This document shows, one piece after another, positions 5,372 to 30,715 of a stretch of DNA of 37,721 nucleotides. Each line of letters starts with the position of its first letter. The stretch's first letter is position 1. The notes below the pieces were generated by a model. The model was not told the DNA's origin and searched no databases. It saw only the letters and a list, made by a program, of their open reading frames with translations. The stretch is taken from NCBI GenBank assembly GCA_903895055.1, contig CAITSL010000041.1:1-37721 (forward strand). The letters run 5' to 3'. Origin of the DNA: an uncultured bacterium. Lineage in GTDB: Bacteria > Patescibacteriota > Minisyncoccia > Phycocordibacterales > UBA9973. A program made the position numbers and the translations under genes.

Positions 5372-7490
5372 ACATTTTTAAAAATTCTTTCTCGTCTAAA
5401 ATTTTCACTCCCAATTTCTGCGCGTCAGTCAATTTGGACCCAGCCTCGGTGCCGGCCACGACATAAGAAGTATTTTTTGAAACCGAGCCAGAAACTTTGC
5501 CACCGAGATTGATTATTTTCTCTTTTACCAATTCCCGCGACATAGTGGCAAGCGTACCGGTTAGAACAAAGACTAAACCCGTAAATTTCCCTTCTTTTTT
5601 ATTTTCCACTTTTTCTATTTTCACACCGTTTTCTCTCAGTTTTTGGATAAATTCAAGATTTTTTTTATCGGCAAAATATTCATGCAAACTTTTGGAAACC
5701 GCCGGCCCAATATTTTCGATACTACTTATTTCAGCAAGGGTAGTCCTTGCTGAAATCATCAATTTCTCCAAGGTGCCAAAATTATTCGCCAAATCTCGCG
5801 CTGTCTCCTCCCCTACGTGCAGTATTCCAAGCGCCCATAAAAATCTTGAAAGTGGAATCTTTTTTTTCATTTCTATTTCTTTGATAATATTTAGCGCCGA
5901 CTTTTCGCCAAAGCGCTCAAGCGGAGCGATATCTTCTTTTTCCAAAGTAAAAATATCCGCCGCGTCGGTGATCAGGGCTTCATCTTTGAACCGACGTAAA
6001 ATTTTCGGCCCCAGTTCGTAAATTTCAAAAACCGAAACAAAATGTTCCAAAAATCTTTCGTTCTTGGCAGGGCATTTCGGGTTGGTGCAATAGTAGGCTA
6101 CGGAAAACTCGGGGGCGTGGGAAGTCCCGAGAGAAACGGTCTGGCCGGGGTGTGGGGCCCCGGAGAACCGAGGACCTTTCGAGCGGGAGCTTCCCGCGCC
6201 CCCGGCTTCCCTTTTTTCTACTCTTCCTCCGCAAGCCGGGCATTTGTCCGGAATTTTGAATTTTTTCTCTTTGCCCGTGCGCATTTTATCCAAAACCTCA
6301 ATCACCTTCGGAATCACATCTCCCGCTTTTTCGATTACCACCGTGTCCCCAATTTTTACCCCAAGCCGTTCTATCTGGTCAAAATTGTGCAGGGTCGCTT
6401 TGGAGATCAAAGAGCCTGCCACGGAAGTCGGAAAAAATATCGCGAGCGGGGTTAAGACTCCCGTACGCCCAACATTTATTCTGATATCTTTTATGATCGT
6501 GGTCGCCCGTTCCGCTGGATATTTATAAGCAATTACCCCCCGTGGATCTTTGCCTACCACTCCTAAATTTTCAAAAATATTCGTATCATCAATGTTCAGA
6601 ACCACTCCATCTATGCCAAAAGACAAACTGTCTCTGATTTGGGAAACTGTTTCGATAAAATTCGGCGCTTCTTTTAGGTGAACTATTCTCTTGGAATGTT
6701 CCTCAACCATAAAACCGAGATTGGCGAGTAATTCATGTTTTTGAGAATGCTTTTCCAAATAAGAGGCTAAACCTCTTTCAAGAGGTTTAGCCTCTTTGAG
6801 TTGTGCAATTTCATAAGCAAAAAAATCCAAGTGACGTTCTTTTACGATTTTGGAATCAAGTTGGCGAAGTGAACCGGCGGCGGCGTTCCGAGAATTCGCA
6901 AAAATCGGTTTTCCTTCAATTTCATTCTGTTTATTTAATTTTTTGAGCACCGGTTTTTTCATGATTGCTTCGCCTCGAACTTCAATTTTTTCTGGAAATG
7001 GAGATTTCAACACAAGCGGAATACTCCCAATCATCTTTAAATTCTCGGTTATGTCTTCACCCACTTCTCCGTCTCCCCTGGTGACTCCCCGCACAAATTT
7101 GCCATTTTCATAAATCAGCGAGATGGCCAGTCCATCTAATTTTAATTCACAAAAATATTCTAGCTCTGGGTTTGAAGAGAGCAATTTTAAATTTCGTTTT
7201 TCCCAAGCAAAAAGTTCTGCCTCGGAAAACACATTGCCGATCGAAAACATCGACACTTCGTGACGCACTTTTTTAAATTTATCGAGTGGCCTACCCGCTA
7301 CTCTATTTTCCCTGGAATTGAGATCAACGAATTCGGGATATTTTTCCAAAAGAGATTTGAGTTCCCTGTTGAGAGAATCATAGACATCATCCGTAACGCC
7401 AGCCACGTTTTCTATATGATAAGCGCTACGAAGTCGCGCGATTTCAATTCGCAATTTATTTATTCTTTTTTTAGCCTCTATTTTATCCAT
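5361..7490 (-). CDS. ligA: NAD-dependent DNA ligase LigA, with a roughly 33-aa insertion in the Zn finger
   Basis: 709 aa. Adenylation motif CELKLDG, OB fold, Cys4 zinc finger CPACGG...[11 protein letters not shown], HhH region and C-terminal BRCT (VFVLTGTL...[10 protein letters not shown]). Confidence 0.95.
6103..6205. repeat. GC-rich imperfect palindrome embedded in-frame in ligA
   Basis: Arms CGGGGGCGTGGGAAGTCCCG (6110..6129) and CGGGAGCTTCCCGCGCCCCCG (6184..6204) are near-complementary, with an inner CCGGGG/CCCCGG hairpin (6145..6163). GC content is far above the flanks. Frames on both strands are open here (track ORFs 6025..6243 and 6042..6455). Confidence 0.75.
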
Positions 7491-7500
7491 GCCAAATAAT

Positions 7501-28318: not shown

Positions 28319-30715
28319 ATGCAATTCAGTGACAAACTTGAAGCAAAATTTCGACTAGACGAGAATCAAAGGAGAGCTTTAAGGAAACTCGGCATTTTTT
28401 CGGTGGCGGATTTGCTCTATCATTTTCCTGTCAGATATTCGGATATCAGTGAAGTAAAACAAATTGCCAATATCATCCCTGGCGAGGTTGCGACAATTTA
28501 TGGAAAAGTTTCAAAATTAAAAACCAAAAAAGGATATCGTTCCAAAATTCCGATGGGCGACCCATTCGATAAAAAACTCAGGGTCGCCCCGAGCGCTTCG
28601 TCGAGGGGCGAAGGTGAGATATCGGATCTTTCCGGAAAAATAAAAATAGTCTGGTTTAATCAAGCCTATTTGGCAAAAATGCTCCATGAGGGAGAAAATG
28701 TAAAACTCACCGGAAAAATAACTCAGGGAAAACAGGGTTTGTATTTGGCCAATCCCGAATTTGAAAAAACCCCAAATATACCGATAGATTCACATGATAC
28801 TTTGTTTTTTAGCAAAGATGGTAAACAAGAAAATGCAGGGTTTTCTTATCCTATCTATCACGAAACTCGAGGTATCACTTCCAAGTGGTTTTATCATGCG
28901 ATTGAAAAAATTTTTAGAGACAAAACTTTGGAGAAGGTGGAAGATTACATCCCAAGTGATATTTTGGAAAAATACAATTTACCGACGCTGAAAACTGCCC
29001 TCATTTGGATTCATAAACCAAAAAATTCTCGGGATGCAGAAAGCGCGCGAAAGCGATTCGCTTTTGAGGAAGTTTTTTGCATTCAACTGGAACGCCAACA
29101 CGATAAAATCGAATACCGTAAAAATAAATCTTTTCAGATACAACCTGAATTTCCTAAAATTTTGAATCCCCGAGGGTCCCACTCCGAAGGAGAAGGGCGC
29201 AGGGGTGAAAAATTAGAGGAAATTCAGGTTGGTCCTGAAGTAAAAAGTTTTCTGGATCGTTTCCCGTTCGAACCAACCAATTCTCAGAAAAAATCTATTG
29301 AAACAATCTTGTCGGATATGGCGAGAAGTTTCCCAATGTCTCGCTTGCTCGAAGGTGATGTCGGCTCCGGCAAAACGGCTGTGGCCGCCACTGCCGCTTA
29401 TATTACAGTAATCCAAGAAAAGCCCCTCGATTCCACTCGGGGCAACCTGCAAATTTCAAAAAATTTGCAGGTTGCTTATATGGCCCCAACGGAAATTTTA
29501 GCTGCTCAACATTTCGAATCTTTCATCCAATATTTCAGACATTTGCCGATCAATATAGGGCTTATCACAGGCTCTGGTTGTAGGAAATTTCCTTCCAAGG
29601 TAAATCCTCTTGGCTGGACCGATATCTCGCGAGCGCAACTTTTAAAATGGACTCTGGGCGGGGAAATTTCTATTTTGATCGGCACTCATGCCTTGATTCA
29701 GAAAACGGTTAAATTTAAAAATCTGGCTTTGGTAGTGATAGACGAACAACACAGATTCGGCACTGCCCAGCGAAGAAAATTGGTCAGGAAAGACGGCATT
29801 GCTCCACATTTGCTTTCCATGACCGCCACTCCGATCCCCCGCACTTTGGCTCTCACTATTTATGGCGACTTGGATTTATCACTTCTCGATGAAATGCCCG
29901 CCGGGCGAAAACAAATCATCACCGAAATAATTACTCCGAACAAAAGGGATGAAACCTATGAAAAAGTCCGCGAAGAATTAAAAAAGGGCAGACAGCTTTA
30001 TGTCATCTGTCCGAGAATAGATGAACCAGATCCGGAAAAGCACCCCTACCCAACCTCCCCCTTAGCTAAGGGGGAGGAGCAAGGAGGGGGTGGATGGAAC
30101 GAGGTTAAAGCAGCAACTGCCGAAGCGAAGCGTTTGAAAAAAGAAATTTTCCGAGAATACGAAATCGGCGTGCTTCATTCAAAGATGTCTAAACAGAAAA
30201 AAGAAGAAGTAATGAAAAATTTTACCGAAGGGAAAATAAATATTTTGTGCGCGACATCTGTCGTAGAAGTTGGGGTCAATGTGCCAAATGCCACGGTGAT
30301 TATTATCGAAGGCGCAGAAAGGTTCGGCCTGGCGCAACTGCACCAACTTCGCGGACGGGTAATTCGAAGCAATGATCAAGCCTATTGCTATGTTTTTGCC
30401 TCCGACTCCGCCAAGGCTTCGCCGGACAAGGATGCTAAAAATAAAACTGTTCAACGACTTAAGGCTCTAATTACAGCCAAAAATGGTTTTGAATTGGCAG
30501 AACTGGACCTGACATTGCGTGGCGCCGGAGAACTTGGTGGTACGAAACAATGGGGCATCACCGACCTTGGGATGGAAGCAATCAAAAATCTGAAAATGGT
30601 CGAAGCTGCCCGGACCGAAGCGGTGCGCCTGATTTCCAAAGACCCCGAACTTTCCAAATATCCCCTTTTGAAACAAAAAGTTCACGAAAAAGCGGGAGAA
30701 TTTCATTTTGAGTAA
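28319..30715 (+). CDS. recG: ATP-dependent DNA helicase RecG, with four short GC-rich insertions
   Basis: 798 aa. Wedge-domain WFNQAYL, helicase motif I GDVGSGKT, MAPTEILAAQH, DEQHRFG, SMTATPIPRT, QLHQLRGRVIR. Confidence 0.92.
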   Translation: MQFSDKLEAKFRLDENQRRALRKLGIFSVADLLYHFPVRYSDISEVKQIANIIPGEVATIYGKVSKLKTKKGYRSKIPMGDPFDKKLRVAPSASSRGEGEISDLSGKIKIVWFNQAYLAKMLHEGENVKLTGKITQGKQGLYLANPEFEKTPNIPIDSHDTLFFSKDGKQENAGFSYPIYHETRGITSKWFYHAIEKIFRDKTLEKVEDYIPSDILEKYNLPTLKTALIWIHKPKNSRDAESARKRFAFEEVFCIQLERQHDKIEYRKNKSFQIQPEFPKILNPRGSHSEGEGRRGEKLEEIQVGPEVKSFLDRFPFEPTNSQKKSIETILSDMARSFPMSRLLEGDVGSGKTAVAATAAYITVIQEKPLDSTRGNLQISKNLQVAYMAPTEILAAQHFESFIQYFRHLPINIGLITGSGCRKFPSKVNPLGWTDISRAQLLKWTLGGEISILIGTHALIQKTVKFKNLALVVIDEQHRFGTAQRRKLVRKDGIAPHLLSMTATPIPRTLALTIYGDLDLSLLDEMPAGRKQIITEIITPNKRDETYEKVREELKKGRQLYVICPRIDEPDPEKHPYPTSPLAKGEEQGGGGWNEVKAATAEAKRLKKEIFREYEIGVLHSKMSKQKKEEVMKNFTEGKINILCATSVVEVGVNVPNATVIIIEGAERFGLAQLHQLRGRVIRSNDQAYCYVFASDSAKASPDKDAKNKTVQRLKALITAKNGFELAELDLTLRGAGELGGTKQWGITDLGMEAIKNLKMVEAARTEAVRLISKDPELSKYPLLKQKVHEKAGEFHFE
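28552..28616. repeat. GC-rich hairpin-forming island inside recG (insert 1)
   Basis: GGCGACCC (28556..28563) pairs with GGGTCGCC (28581..28588), and CGCCCC (28585..28590) with GGGGCG (28605..28610). Encodes DPFDKKLRVAPSASSRGEGE. Confidence 0.6.
29167..29206. repeat. GC-rich hairpin-forming island inside recG (insert 2)
   Basis: CCCCGAGGGTCCCACTCCGAAGGAGAAGGGCGCAGGGG, with an inner CTCC-GAA-GGAG hairpin and outer CCCC/GGGG. Encodes NPRGSHSEGEGRRGE. Confidence 0.55.
29422..29475. repeat. GC hairpin plus perfect 15-bp inverted repeat inside recG (insert 3)
   Basis: GCCCC...GGGGC (29422..29443), then GCAACCTGCAAATTT (29442..29456), loop CAAA, AAATTTGCAGGTTGC (29461..29475). Confidence 0.85.
30040..30097. 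repeat. GC-rich island with a perfect 24-nt palindrome inside recG (insert 4)
   Basis: CCTCCCCCTTAG|CTAAGGGGGAGG at 30054..30077, flanked by CACCCC / GGGGGTG. Encodes HPYPTSPLAKGEEQGGGGW. Confidence 0.85.

Follow-up and report, generated by a model that had tools for sequence, protein, structure and literature searches.

We investigated a 37,721-nt stretch of metagenomic DNA from an uncultured bacterium (contig CAITSL010000041.1 of assembly GCA_903895055.1; hereafter, the window), which contains short palindromic insertions within two genes, ligA (5361..7490, minus strand, 709 aa) and recG (28319..30715, plus strand, 798 aa). The nearest relatives of the encoded LigA and RecG proteins, at 65–81% identity, come from metagenome-assembled genomes (MAGs) labelled Candidatus Nomurabacteria, Paceibacterota, Minisyncoccia or Patescibacteria, indicating that the source organism is a bacterium of the Candidate Phyla Radiation (CPR). 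A first-pass annotation had described five GC-rich palindromic islands in these genes, one in ligA (island 1) and four in recG (islands 2 to 5, in order of coordinate), as a single family resembling the Rickettsia palindromic elements (RPEs). The phenomenon is real and wider than that annotation had it, but the islands do not constitute one family. The two genes hold members of at least three dispersed families of hairpin repeats with unrelated cores, A (island 1), B (island 3) and C (island 5), together with three local or orphan palindromic insertions: an orphan (island 2), a local inverted duplication (island 4) and a sixth palindrome in ligA.

Palindromic insertions in ligA and recG

Island 1 is the copy of element A in ligA (6105..6206, minus strand), which adds approximately 34 codons between the two Zn-finger Cys pairs (aa ~429–462). 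Its palindrome proper spans 6110–6204 (minus strand) and includes the conserved element A core (6138..6176, minus strand), an asymmetric 39-nt sequence that reads GGTCCTCGGTTCTCCGGGGCCCCacaCCCCGGCCAGACC on the ligA strand and is recovered by nhmmer with E = 4e-14. The sixth palindrome (6761..6796, minus strand; "family E") is perfect and coreless, with 17-nt arms and a 2-nt spacer, and corresponds to a 7-aa insertion in a loop of the adenylation domain.

The boundaries of the recG inserts were taken from a codon-level alignment with three related stretches of DNA, L115 (empty), L116 (carrying islands 2 and 4) and L005 (carrying island 3), the nearest RecG relatives, P0122 and P0123, being left out of the DNA-level comparison. 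All four recG islands lie on the plus strand. Island 2 (28556..28606) inserts 51 nt (17 codons) cleanly into the wedge region of RecG, forms two adjacent hairpins and has the direct repeat GGGCGA on its flanks. Island 3, the copy of element B (29133..29239), is a 107-nt imperfect palindrome with 38-nt arms; the inserted block itself, 27 codons that are missing from empty orthologues, occupies 29150–29230 and contains the conserved GC-rich core of element B (29168..29205), CCCCGAGGGTCCCACTCCGAAGGAGAAGGGCGCAGGGG. Island 4 (29422..29475) consists of a small GC hairpin (29422–29443) followed by a perfect palindrome with 15-nt arms (29442–29475), and island 5, the copy of element C (30041..30106), has 22 codons in place of six host codons, a net gain of 48 nt, with a nested hairpin at 30041–30092.

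The GC content of islands 1, 2, 3 and 5 is 71%, 62%, 70% and 66%, respectively, within the top 0.03–0.6% of segments of the same length, so that these four are strongly GC-rich, as the annotation had it, but island 4, at 50% GC (14th percentile), is no GC outlier; the background, which had been called very AT-rich, is only moderately so (38.9% GC for the window). All five islands fold as hairpins better than shuffled controls, bearing out their description as palindromes (DNA z-scores of −3.85, −2.1, −1.4, −6.1 and −3.2 for islands 1 to 5). In a 70-nt sliding fold across the whole window (mean −9.9, standard deviation 4.75 kcal/mol), islands 1, 5 and 2 occupy the first three ranks (−37.3, −37.2 and −31.2 kcal/mol), the 6761–6796 palindrome, missing from the original list, ranks fifth, and islands 4 and 3 hold ranks 6 and 7. 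The segment originally delimited as island 3 (29167..29206) is indeed a GC-rich palindrome but only the core of the larger one. Two sequence motifs had been proposed to link the islands. The heptamer CCCCGAG is present as described, but it is only marginally enriched (6 occurrences compared to 2.5 expected, a count of 6 being reached in 3 of 100 shuffles) and is missing from the A core, and we rejected it as a family signature; the GEGE motif attributed to inserts 1 and 2 is, beside island 2, host sequence in every orthologue.

The reading frame is kept by all five islands, as claimed, and by the 6761–6796 palindrome. Compared with solved structures, LigA carries approximately 33 extra residues between the Zn-finger Cys pairs and RecG carries extra residues at all four island sites, and most of the ~120 close homologues of each protein lack the islands, confirming that these segments are additions. 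Among LigA and RecG homologues at 65–81% identity, the sites are polymorphic, with many empty alleles. Island 2 is found in only 4 of 120 RecG homologues and is missing from the nearest relatives; the block of island 3, ~27–28 codons long, is present in ~20 RecG sequences and missing from the others; island 4 is one form of a variable loop, only 1 aa longer than a common form and 7–9 aa longer than the shortest; and the island 5 site accommodates many different inserts in different relatives. The baseline length of RecG in this group is ~720 aa, compared to 798 aa here, and the longer ligases among the LigA homologues mostly have no match to the Zn-finger Pfam model.

Element A is dispersed among unrelated genes and spacers

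No further copies of A, B, C or the other palindromes (families A–E) were found within the window itself. A scan of metagenomes for element A, using a pattern of 23 nt drawn from the core's left half, yielded 105 stretches, mostly from ~100 contigs of Paceibacteria; between 4 and 6 of these matches (e.g., L017, L039, L045 and L077) come from GC-rich organisms, lack the right half of the core and were excluded as chance. The core, GGTCCTCGGTTCTCCGGGGCCCC-NNN-CCCCGGCCAGACC, is 39 nt long, and 31 of its columns are invariant in 61 copies, including columns of the right half, outside the search pattern. Representative host genes confirmed by Pfam encode PolA, TrmD, a class-V aminotransferase, RecJ, RNase R, PheT, UvrD, an amidase/GatA, MnmA and an Mg-chelatase/ComM-like ATPase; LigA and LeuRS were recognized by eye. 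Element A thus occurs in at least 12 gene families, in addition to intergenic spacers.

Open reading frames (ORFs) of at least 150 aa contain 81 of the 105 matches, and 77% of the A copies lie within genes. None of the six frames of the core contains a stop codon, and each is in use, by 30, 26, 5, 7, 5 and 4 of the 77 genic copies, so that protein-level selection cannot account for the conservation of the core, and the constraint must act on DNA or RNA. Any given frame across core and arms is open in only 26–47% of cases, whereas the genic copies are always open and frame-preserving. In 79% of these 77 copies (L010–L114), the core has the orientation of the host gene, a bias that could be related to the replication strand or to transcription. 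Approximately 22 copies are intergenic, located 25–55 nt past the stop codon of one gene and 40–80 nt ahead of the next, and include arm variants containing stop codons (TATAA/TCTAA). The possibility that these intergenic copies split a gene, to be bypassed in translation, was examined and rejected: their neighbors are complete, unrelated genes.

The median A palindrome is 99 nt long and shows a steep gradient of conservation. Among the 12 copies located in ligA, the core is 93.6% identical, and its 13 nt outside the search pattern are 98.7% identical, compared to 77.9% for the flanking ligA sequence and 66% for the arms. The invariant positions of the core include unpaired ones, the CTCGGTTCT bulge and the loop CCCC, suggesting sequence-specific recognition. 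Next to the core, most copies have short, semi-conserved, A/T-rich inner arms (TTTTCTCA–core–ATTCGAAAA, the majority type, also written TTTTCTCA..TTCGAAAA). In the ligA copies, the inner arms are of the form ..TTCGAAA–core–ATTTCTCA and look swapped relative to the core; a simple inversion of the majority type was considered for these LigA-type arms (TCGAAA..TTTCTCA), but it does not account for the pattern.

The outer arms are self-complementary within each copy and differ from copy to copy. On average, 15.2 of 21 positions form Watson-Crick pairs within a copy, against 8.3 of 21 across copies, and complementarity lies above the 95th percentile of the cross-copy control in 93% of copies. With the register fixed, the proportion of paired cells is 72.5%, compared to 60.8% in shuffles, and the covariation score is 0.273 compared to 0.117, a value reached in 0 of 500 shuffles; the −1 register scores alike, reflecting 1-nt bulges.

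Several genes carry two A copies, namely, pheT in L062 (in opposite orientations), a cysteine desulfurase gene in L036 and the ligA of L002, where both insertion hot spots are occupied. One 598-kb contig (Ga0265297_10000035) contains two matches to the strict A pattern (L062 and L066), and nhmmer adds a second, more divergent copy in L062. As a separate observation, a UvrD-like gene in L041 (6300–6445) carries a diverged B copy and an A copy in tandem, both in reverse orientation, and the same site in L054 carries A alone.

Phages and plasmids were considered as vectors and set aside, given that neither the A nor the B core has a match in IMG/VR and the A core has none in INPHARED phages or PLSDB plasmids. 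The covariance models of Rfam 15 gave only generic miRNA-precursor hairpin matches far below threshold, and a concatenated element A peptide query against a 5.8-billion-protein database returned no candidates.

Elements B and C recur in other genes

As to the dispersal of element B, 55 of 57 nt of recG island 3 are found in the ligA Zn-finger region of GCA_023267175.1 (L001), and both differences are compensatory. At the protein level, the LigA homologue P0103 carries ILNPRGSHPEGEGRRGEKFEE at the Zn finger, which is the peptide of recG island 3. Scanning one genome per species with a strict pattern, and recognizing the host genes by eye from their motifs, we detected B in ligA, recG, a uvrC-like gene (three genomes, in reverse, read as SPLRPSPSEWDPRGFKN), a tgt-like gene (in reverse) and a cysteine-desulfurase-like gene. 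The 57-nt stretch around the core is 55/57 to 57/57 identical in ligA and recG of other genomes, and cores of 39–53 nt are 92–100% identical in the uvrC-like, tgt-like and cysteine-desulfurase-like genes. The apical 4-bp stem of B takes one of three forms, CTCC/GGAG, CCCC/GGGG or CGCC/GGCG, and its two sides are complementary in all 9 copies. At one and the same uvrC site in L007 and L009, the cores are identical and the arms are ~75% identical, with compensatory changes.

Element C has related copies in the cysteine-desulfurase genes of L073 and L080, which, with recG, makes two host genes. We also observed GC-rich nested hairpins of the CCCCT..AGGGG or CCTCTCCTTA..TAAGGAGAGG type in L031, L060, L075, L103, L008 and L107, which resemble C and suggest a wider superfamily in these genomes.

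Flipped elements, reuse of sites and probable local palindrome formation

The Zn-finger site of LigA shows that elements can occur in opposite orientations at one position. Many LigA homologues carry the insert peptide of the window at this site, others carry the reverse-strand translation of the same DNA, and some are empty. In L002, 40 of 41 nt of the window's A core are present in inverted orientation within flanking ligA sequence that is 86% identical and in the same orientation. Furthermore, the arms and core of L056 are the exact reverse complement of those of L050 at this site, including the asymmetries of the arms, and the outermost arm, CGGAAATTT.., is common to both. The simplest explanation of the two states is that the element flipped in place between its inverted arms.

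The same sites are also occupied by different elements. At the LigA Zn finger, we found A in three frame/orientation states, B and several other insert types; the adenylation loop holds a coreless palindrome in some genomes and A in others (e.g., L002); the island 5 site of RecG holds C, B and others; and a single cysteine-desulfurase site carries C in L073 and L080 and A in L083. The A-bearing (L012 and L027) and B-bearing (L001 and L003) ligA alleles have in common the outer-arm motif GAGCTCC../..GGA(G)C, which contributes SS codons, suggesting exchange of cores within resident arms.

Other palindromes appear to have formed locally. In island 4, the right arm is formed by conserved NLQVA codons of the host, which the left arm repeats in inverted form; island 4 is thus a local inverted duplication of host codons rather than a dispersed element, and its comparison with L116 shows compensatory changes in both hairpins. 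The 6761–6796 palindrome has related perfect palindromes at the same site in two relatives, L066 among them, which differ by paired changes only. Finally, the palindrome of island 3 continues for 9 nt into host codons that are themselves variable; the added segment covaries, being CAACCTGAA/TTCAGGTTG in the window and AAAACTGAA/TTCAGTTT in L005. Together, these three cases point to hairpin-templated correction or template switching that maintains and lengthens arms and acts independently of the dispersed cores.

Protein context of the inserts

In the AlphaFold model of LigA (mean predicted local distance difference test score, pLDDT, of 79.9), the only segment below 50 is 429–461, located between the Zn-ribbon strands 423–429 and 461–468; the insert sits at the ribbon tip and leaves all four Zn-finger Cys in place. 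The 7-aa insert encoded by the 6761–6796 palindrome falls in a lower-confidence coil. In RecG, all four inserts are modelled as coil below 50 pLDDT. Loop placement is clear in the LigA model, and the RecG model, of poor quality, is consistent with it. The genic copies are most likely translated as extra disordered loops rich in G, S, P and R; NPRGSHSEGEGRRGEK, within LigA/RecG flanks, is one of the predicted insert peptides. Removal or bypass of the inserts is unlikely.

Origin of the insertions

Given the recurrence of the cores in unrelated genes, we consider it likely that islands 1, 3 and 5 are copies of three families (A, B and C) of small non-autonomous hairpin repeats dispersed in the genomes of Paceibacteria/Nomurabacteria, that island 4 and the 6761–6796 palindrome are products of local palindrome formation with no dispersed core, and that island 2 is an insertion of a similar general style. 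Under this model, each copy has three layers: a conserved GC-rich core (39 nt in A), semi-conserved A/T-rich inner arms and copy-specific, self-complementary outer arms of 10–30 nt, for a whole palindrome of ~80–110 nt. Copies lie in short intergenic spacers and, more often, within housekeeping genes, where they survive only as stop-free multiples of three bases at permissive loops or linkers, and different core families make repeated use of the same permissive sites. Once inserted, an element can flip as a whole by exchange between its inverted arms, and the arms evolve in concert, probably via hairpin-templated repair or template switching, such that adjacent host codons can be copied into a new arm. 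As for mobility, the apparent lack of a target-site duplication favors an enzyme that would recognize the core as a single-strand hairpin. The hosts are not confined to DNA-repair genes, which had originally been singled out, given that tRNA-modification enzymes, aminoacyl-tRNA synthetase subunits, cysteine desulfurase, RNase R and spacers carry copies as well, and copies at other loci of relatives were found for A, B and C, in ORFs and, for A, in spacers, but not for islands 2 and 4.

Several observations weigh against this model. Copy numbers appear low: the B core was found in 7 MAGs, once in each, and an nhmmer search of ~850 kb of DNA flanking the A copies added only 4, amounting to roughly a few copies per genome per family in a survey of contigs and MAG stretches. 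Island 2 has no copy outside recG in 0.92 Mb of related DNA, and no dispersed copy of island 4 was found. There is no transposase among the genes of the window, and the flanks of A show neither duplicated target sites nor a target motif (the longest direct word shared by the two ends measures 3.73, compared to 3.49 in controls); the mode of movement outlined above is a proposal. Copy-specific arms are unexpected if an element copies itself whole. Some of the measurements are also partly circular, since the conservation of the A core is in part imposed by the search patterns and the sorting of A copies into genic and intergenic draws in part on the openness of the frame, from which translation of the inserts is likewise deduced. 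Finally, the RecG model used to place the inserts is poor (mean pLDDT 54.8).

Could the islands have arisen with no mobile element at all, each being a lineage-specific loop produced by local template switching during replication under reduced hairpin surveillance? Local events of this kind would fit the inverted NLQVA codons in island 4, the coreless, perfect palindrome at 6761–6796 and its relative in L066, which differ only by compensatory changes, and the covarying 9-nt extension of island 3, and island 2 is without paralogues in the related DNA searched. However, template switching cannot yield identical cores of 39–57 nt across many genomes, in spacers as well as in more than 12 unrelated genes, and it leaves the use of the core in six frames unexplained; it is already refuted as a general account of islands 1, 3 and 5, and we regard it as very improbable for the set as a whole. 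A different proposal, that the elements are structured sites selected by the host, for binding of nucleoid, repair or replication proteins or as signals of mRNA stability or pausing, rather than selfish DNA, would explain why the core is better conserved than the host gene, down to the unpaired bulge and loop, why intergenic copies lie at a regular distance from the upstream stop codon and why most genic copies follow the orientation of the host gene. This proposal has to contend with patchy presence and absence among close relatives at every site, with the occurrence of both orientations, as well as different cores, at a single site, and with the lack of a match to any Rfam family; we consider it unlikely, and it is in any case compatible with a mobile origin.

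Least credible, and in our view barely worth entertaining, is the explanation that the protein is made without the inserts, these being excised or skipped beforehand, as introns, inteins or segments subject to translational bypass of the kind found in some yeast mitochondria, in which case LigA and RecG would be unaltered. Stable GC-rich hairpins in coding sequence do recall the bypass elements of Magnusiomyces mitochondria, but every genic copy is stop-free in the frame of the host and keeps that frame, although any single frame across core and arms is open in only 26–47% of cases. The stop-containing arm variants occur in intergenic copies between complete, unrelated genes, and there are no intron, intein or ribozyme signatures.

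A variant of the mobile-repeat model deserves mention. The conserved GC-rich cores could be the actual mobile units, cassettes for a hairpin-specific enzyme that enter, leave and replace one another at the tips of resident palindromes, while the arms would be older, site-bound and kept self-complementary by hairpin-templated repair. We advance this idea tentatively and think it rather doubtful; the hints in its favor are the arm motif common to A- and B-bearing ligA alleles, the presence of different cores at the same sites, the coreless palindromes at a site that bears A elsewhere and the lack of a target-site duplication. If true, the cores would represent an undescribed class of mobile DNA in CPR bacteria that remodels surface loops of essential proteins such as LigA, PolA, RecG, UvrD and aminoacyl-tRNA synthetases in any frame.

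The genomes of CPR bacteria (Patescibacteria) are among the smallest and most streamlined of all bacteria and, to our knowledge, not noted for repeat families. Should they be confirmed, dispersed hairpin repeats would extend Rickettsia-like selfish DNA inside protein-coding genes to a second, unrelated lineage with reduced genomes; several families would reside within essential genes, where they would flip in place and be translated in whichever of the six frames they occupy. They would amount to a natural experiment on the gain of new disordered loops by proteins and would likely explain many length differences and "broken" domain matches in CPR proteins. The cores could be useful as markers for strain-level population genetics, and the combination of a conserved core with concertedly evolving arms would make hairpin-directed repair and recombination testable in uncultured organisms.

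Other features of the window

The other genes of the window are ordinary housekeeping genes, among them those for a cysteine desulfurase, FtsH, an ABC/MacB exporter, a PCMT methyltransferase, a racemase and a response regulator, along with four tRNAs and one free-standing LAGLIDADG-like ORF. The latter (2634–3311, minus strand, 225 aa) adjoins tRNA-Ser (2569–2656) and matches LAGLIDADG_3 and WhiA-type LAGLIDADG domains; it is possibly the relic of a homing endonuclease, or else a domesticated copy. ARAGORN predicts two divergently arranged tRNA-Ser genes, at 27623–27712 (minus strand) and 27806–27893 (plus strand), with anticodons GCT and ACT; both calls are below the Rfam tRNA gathering score, and an ACT anticodon would be unusual in a bacterium. 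Upstream of ligA (7501–19110, minus strand) lies an apparent type IV pilus or type II secretion-like cluster, conserved beside ligA in relatives, whose members (PilM, PilO, T2SSE, T2SSF, a prepilin peptidase and N-methyl pilins) were assigned by synteny with L001, L002 and L117. Four ORFs have no Pfam match: 23410–25842 (plus strand, 810 aa), 19818–21002 (plus strand, 394 aa), 20992–21501 (minus strand, 169 aa) and 2063–2509 (minus strand, 148 aa). A stable hairpin (−26.6 kcal/mol) at 29031–29100, SRDAESARKRFAFEEVF, belongs to a conserved part of recG and is not an insertion. A further GC island (748–812), examined for its peptide-level likeness to island 2, was rejected as ordinary coding sequence of an N-terminal membrane segment.

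Comparison with known repeat systems

We compared the elements with four known systems. The defining features of bacterial miniature inverted-repeat transposable elements (MITEs), such as Correia/NEMIS, ERIC and Nezha, are target-site duplications and terminal inverted repeats that are alike from copy to copy. The CPR elements are likewise small, non-autonomous hairpin elements with in-frame ORF insertions, which are occasional in MITEs; unlike in MITEs, their termini are the least conserved part (arms at most 66% identical) and the center is conserved, no duplication is detectable for A, and the GGGCGA repeat of island 2 is the only flanking direct repeat.

Repetitive extragenic palindromic (REP) sequences and bacterial interspersed mosaic elements (BIMEs) are mobilized by REP-associated tyrosine transposases (RAYTs) of the IS200/IS605-type Y1/HUH class; REPs are almost entirely extragenic and reach high copy numbers. 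The similarity here is a 20–40-nt imperfect, asymmetric hairpin of conserved sequence that is plausibly recognized as single-stranded DNA; the A core forms an asymmetric hairpin of 39 nt, conserved in sequence, whose unpaired bases include invariant ones. The absence of a target-site duplication, the occurrence of both orientations and the location of intergenic copies just past gene ends are further points of agreement. In contrast to REPs, which lie mostly outside genes, about three quarters of the A copies lie inside them, and no RAYT gene was encountered, although no search aimed at one was made.

The GC clusters and double-hairpin elements of fungal mitochondria are organellar and mostly intergenic, fall into several families, are optional between strains and can be in frame, as in yeast var1. 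The elements described here resemble them as GC-rich palindromic islands in an AT-rich genome, in several families, optional and in frame in coding genes, the latter only occasionally so in mitochondria; there is no homology between the two, and we know of no description of a conserved core with copy-specific arms for mitochondrial GC clusters.

The closest parallel is with the RPEs, reportedly described by Ogata and colleagues in 2000 and 2002 and said to comprise RPE-1 to RPE-10. RPE consensus sequences run over the whole element, and copies number in the tens to hundreds; RPEs are not known to encode a transposase or to be flanked by clear target-site duplications. Like RPEs, the CPR elements are palindromic repeats of ~100 nt that form hairpins and are dispersed in a small, AT-rich genome, both between genes and, as stop-free in-frame insertions, within unrelated housekeeping ORFs, where they add peptide segments at tolerated, probably surface, positions. 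The presence of the same sequence at several non-orthologous loci, another RPE trait, is found for A, B (5 genes) and C (2 genes). The differences are that the host belongs to CPR/Paceibacteria rather than Rickettsiales, such that no sequence relation is expected; that the conserved part is the GC-rich core, with copy-specific arms; and that all six frames of the A core are open and in use, entire elements occur flipped at one site, and copies per family per genome appear to be few. The RPE-like reading of the first-pass annotation thus holds for islands 1, 3 and 5, whose cores recur at 92–100% identity, in both orientations, in unrelated genes of other Paceibacteria, but fails for island 4. 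By analogy, these elements appear to work like RPEs without being members of the Rickettsia families.

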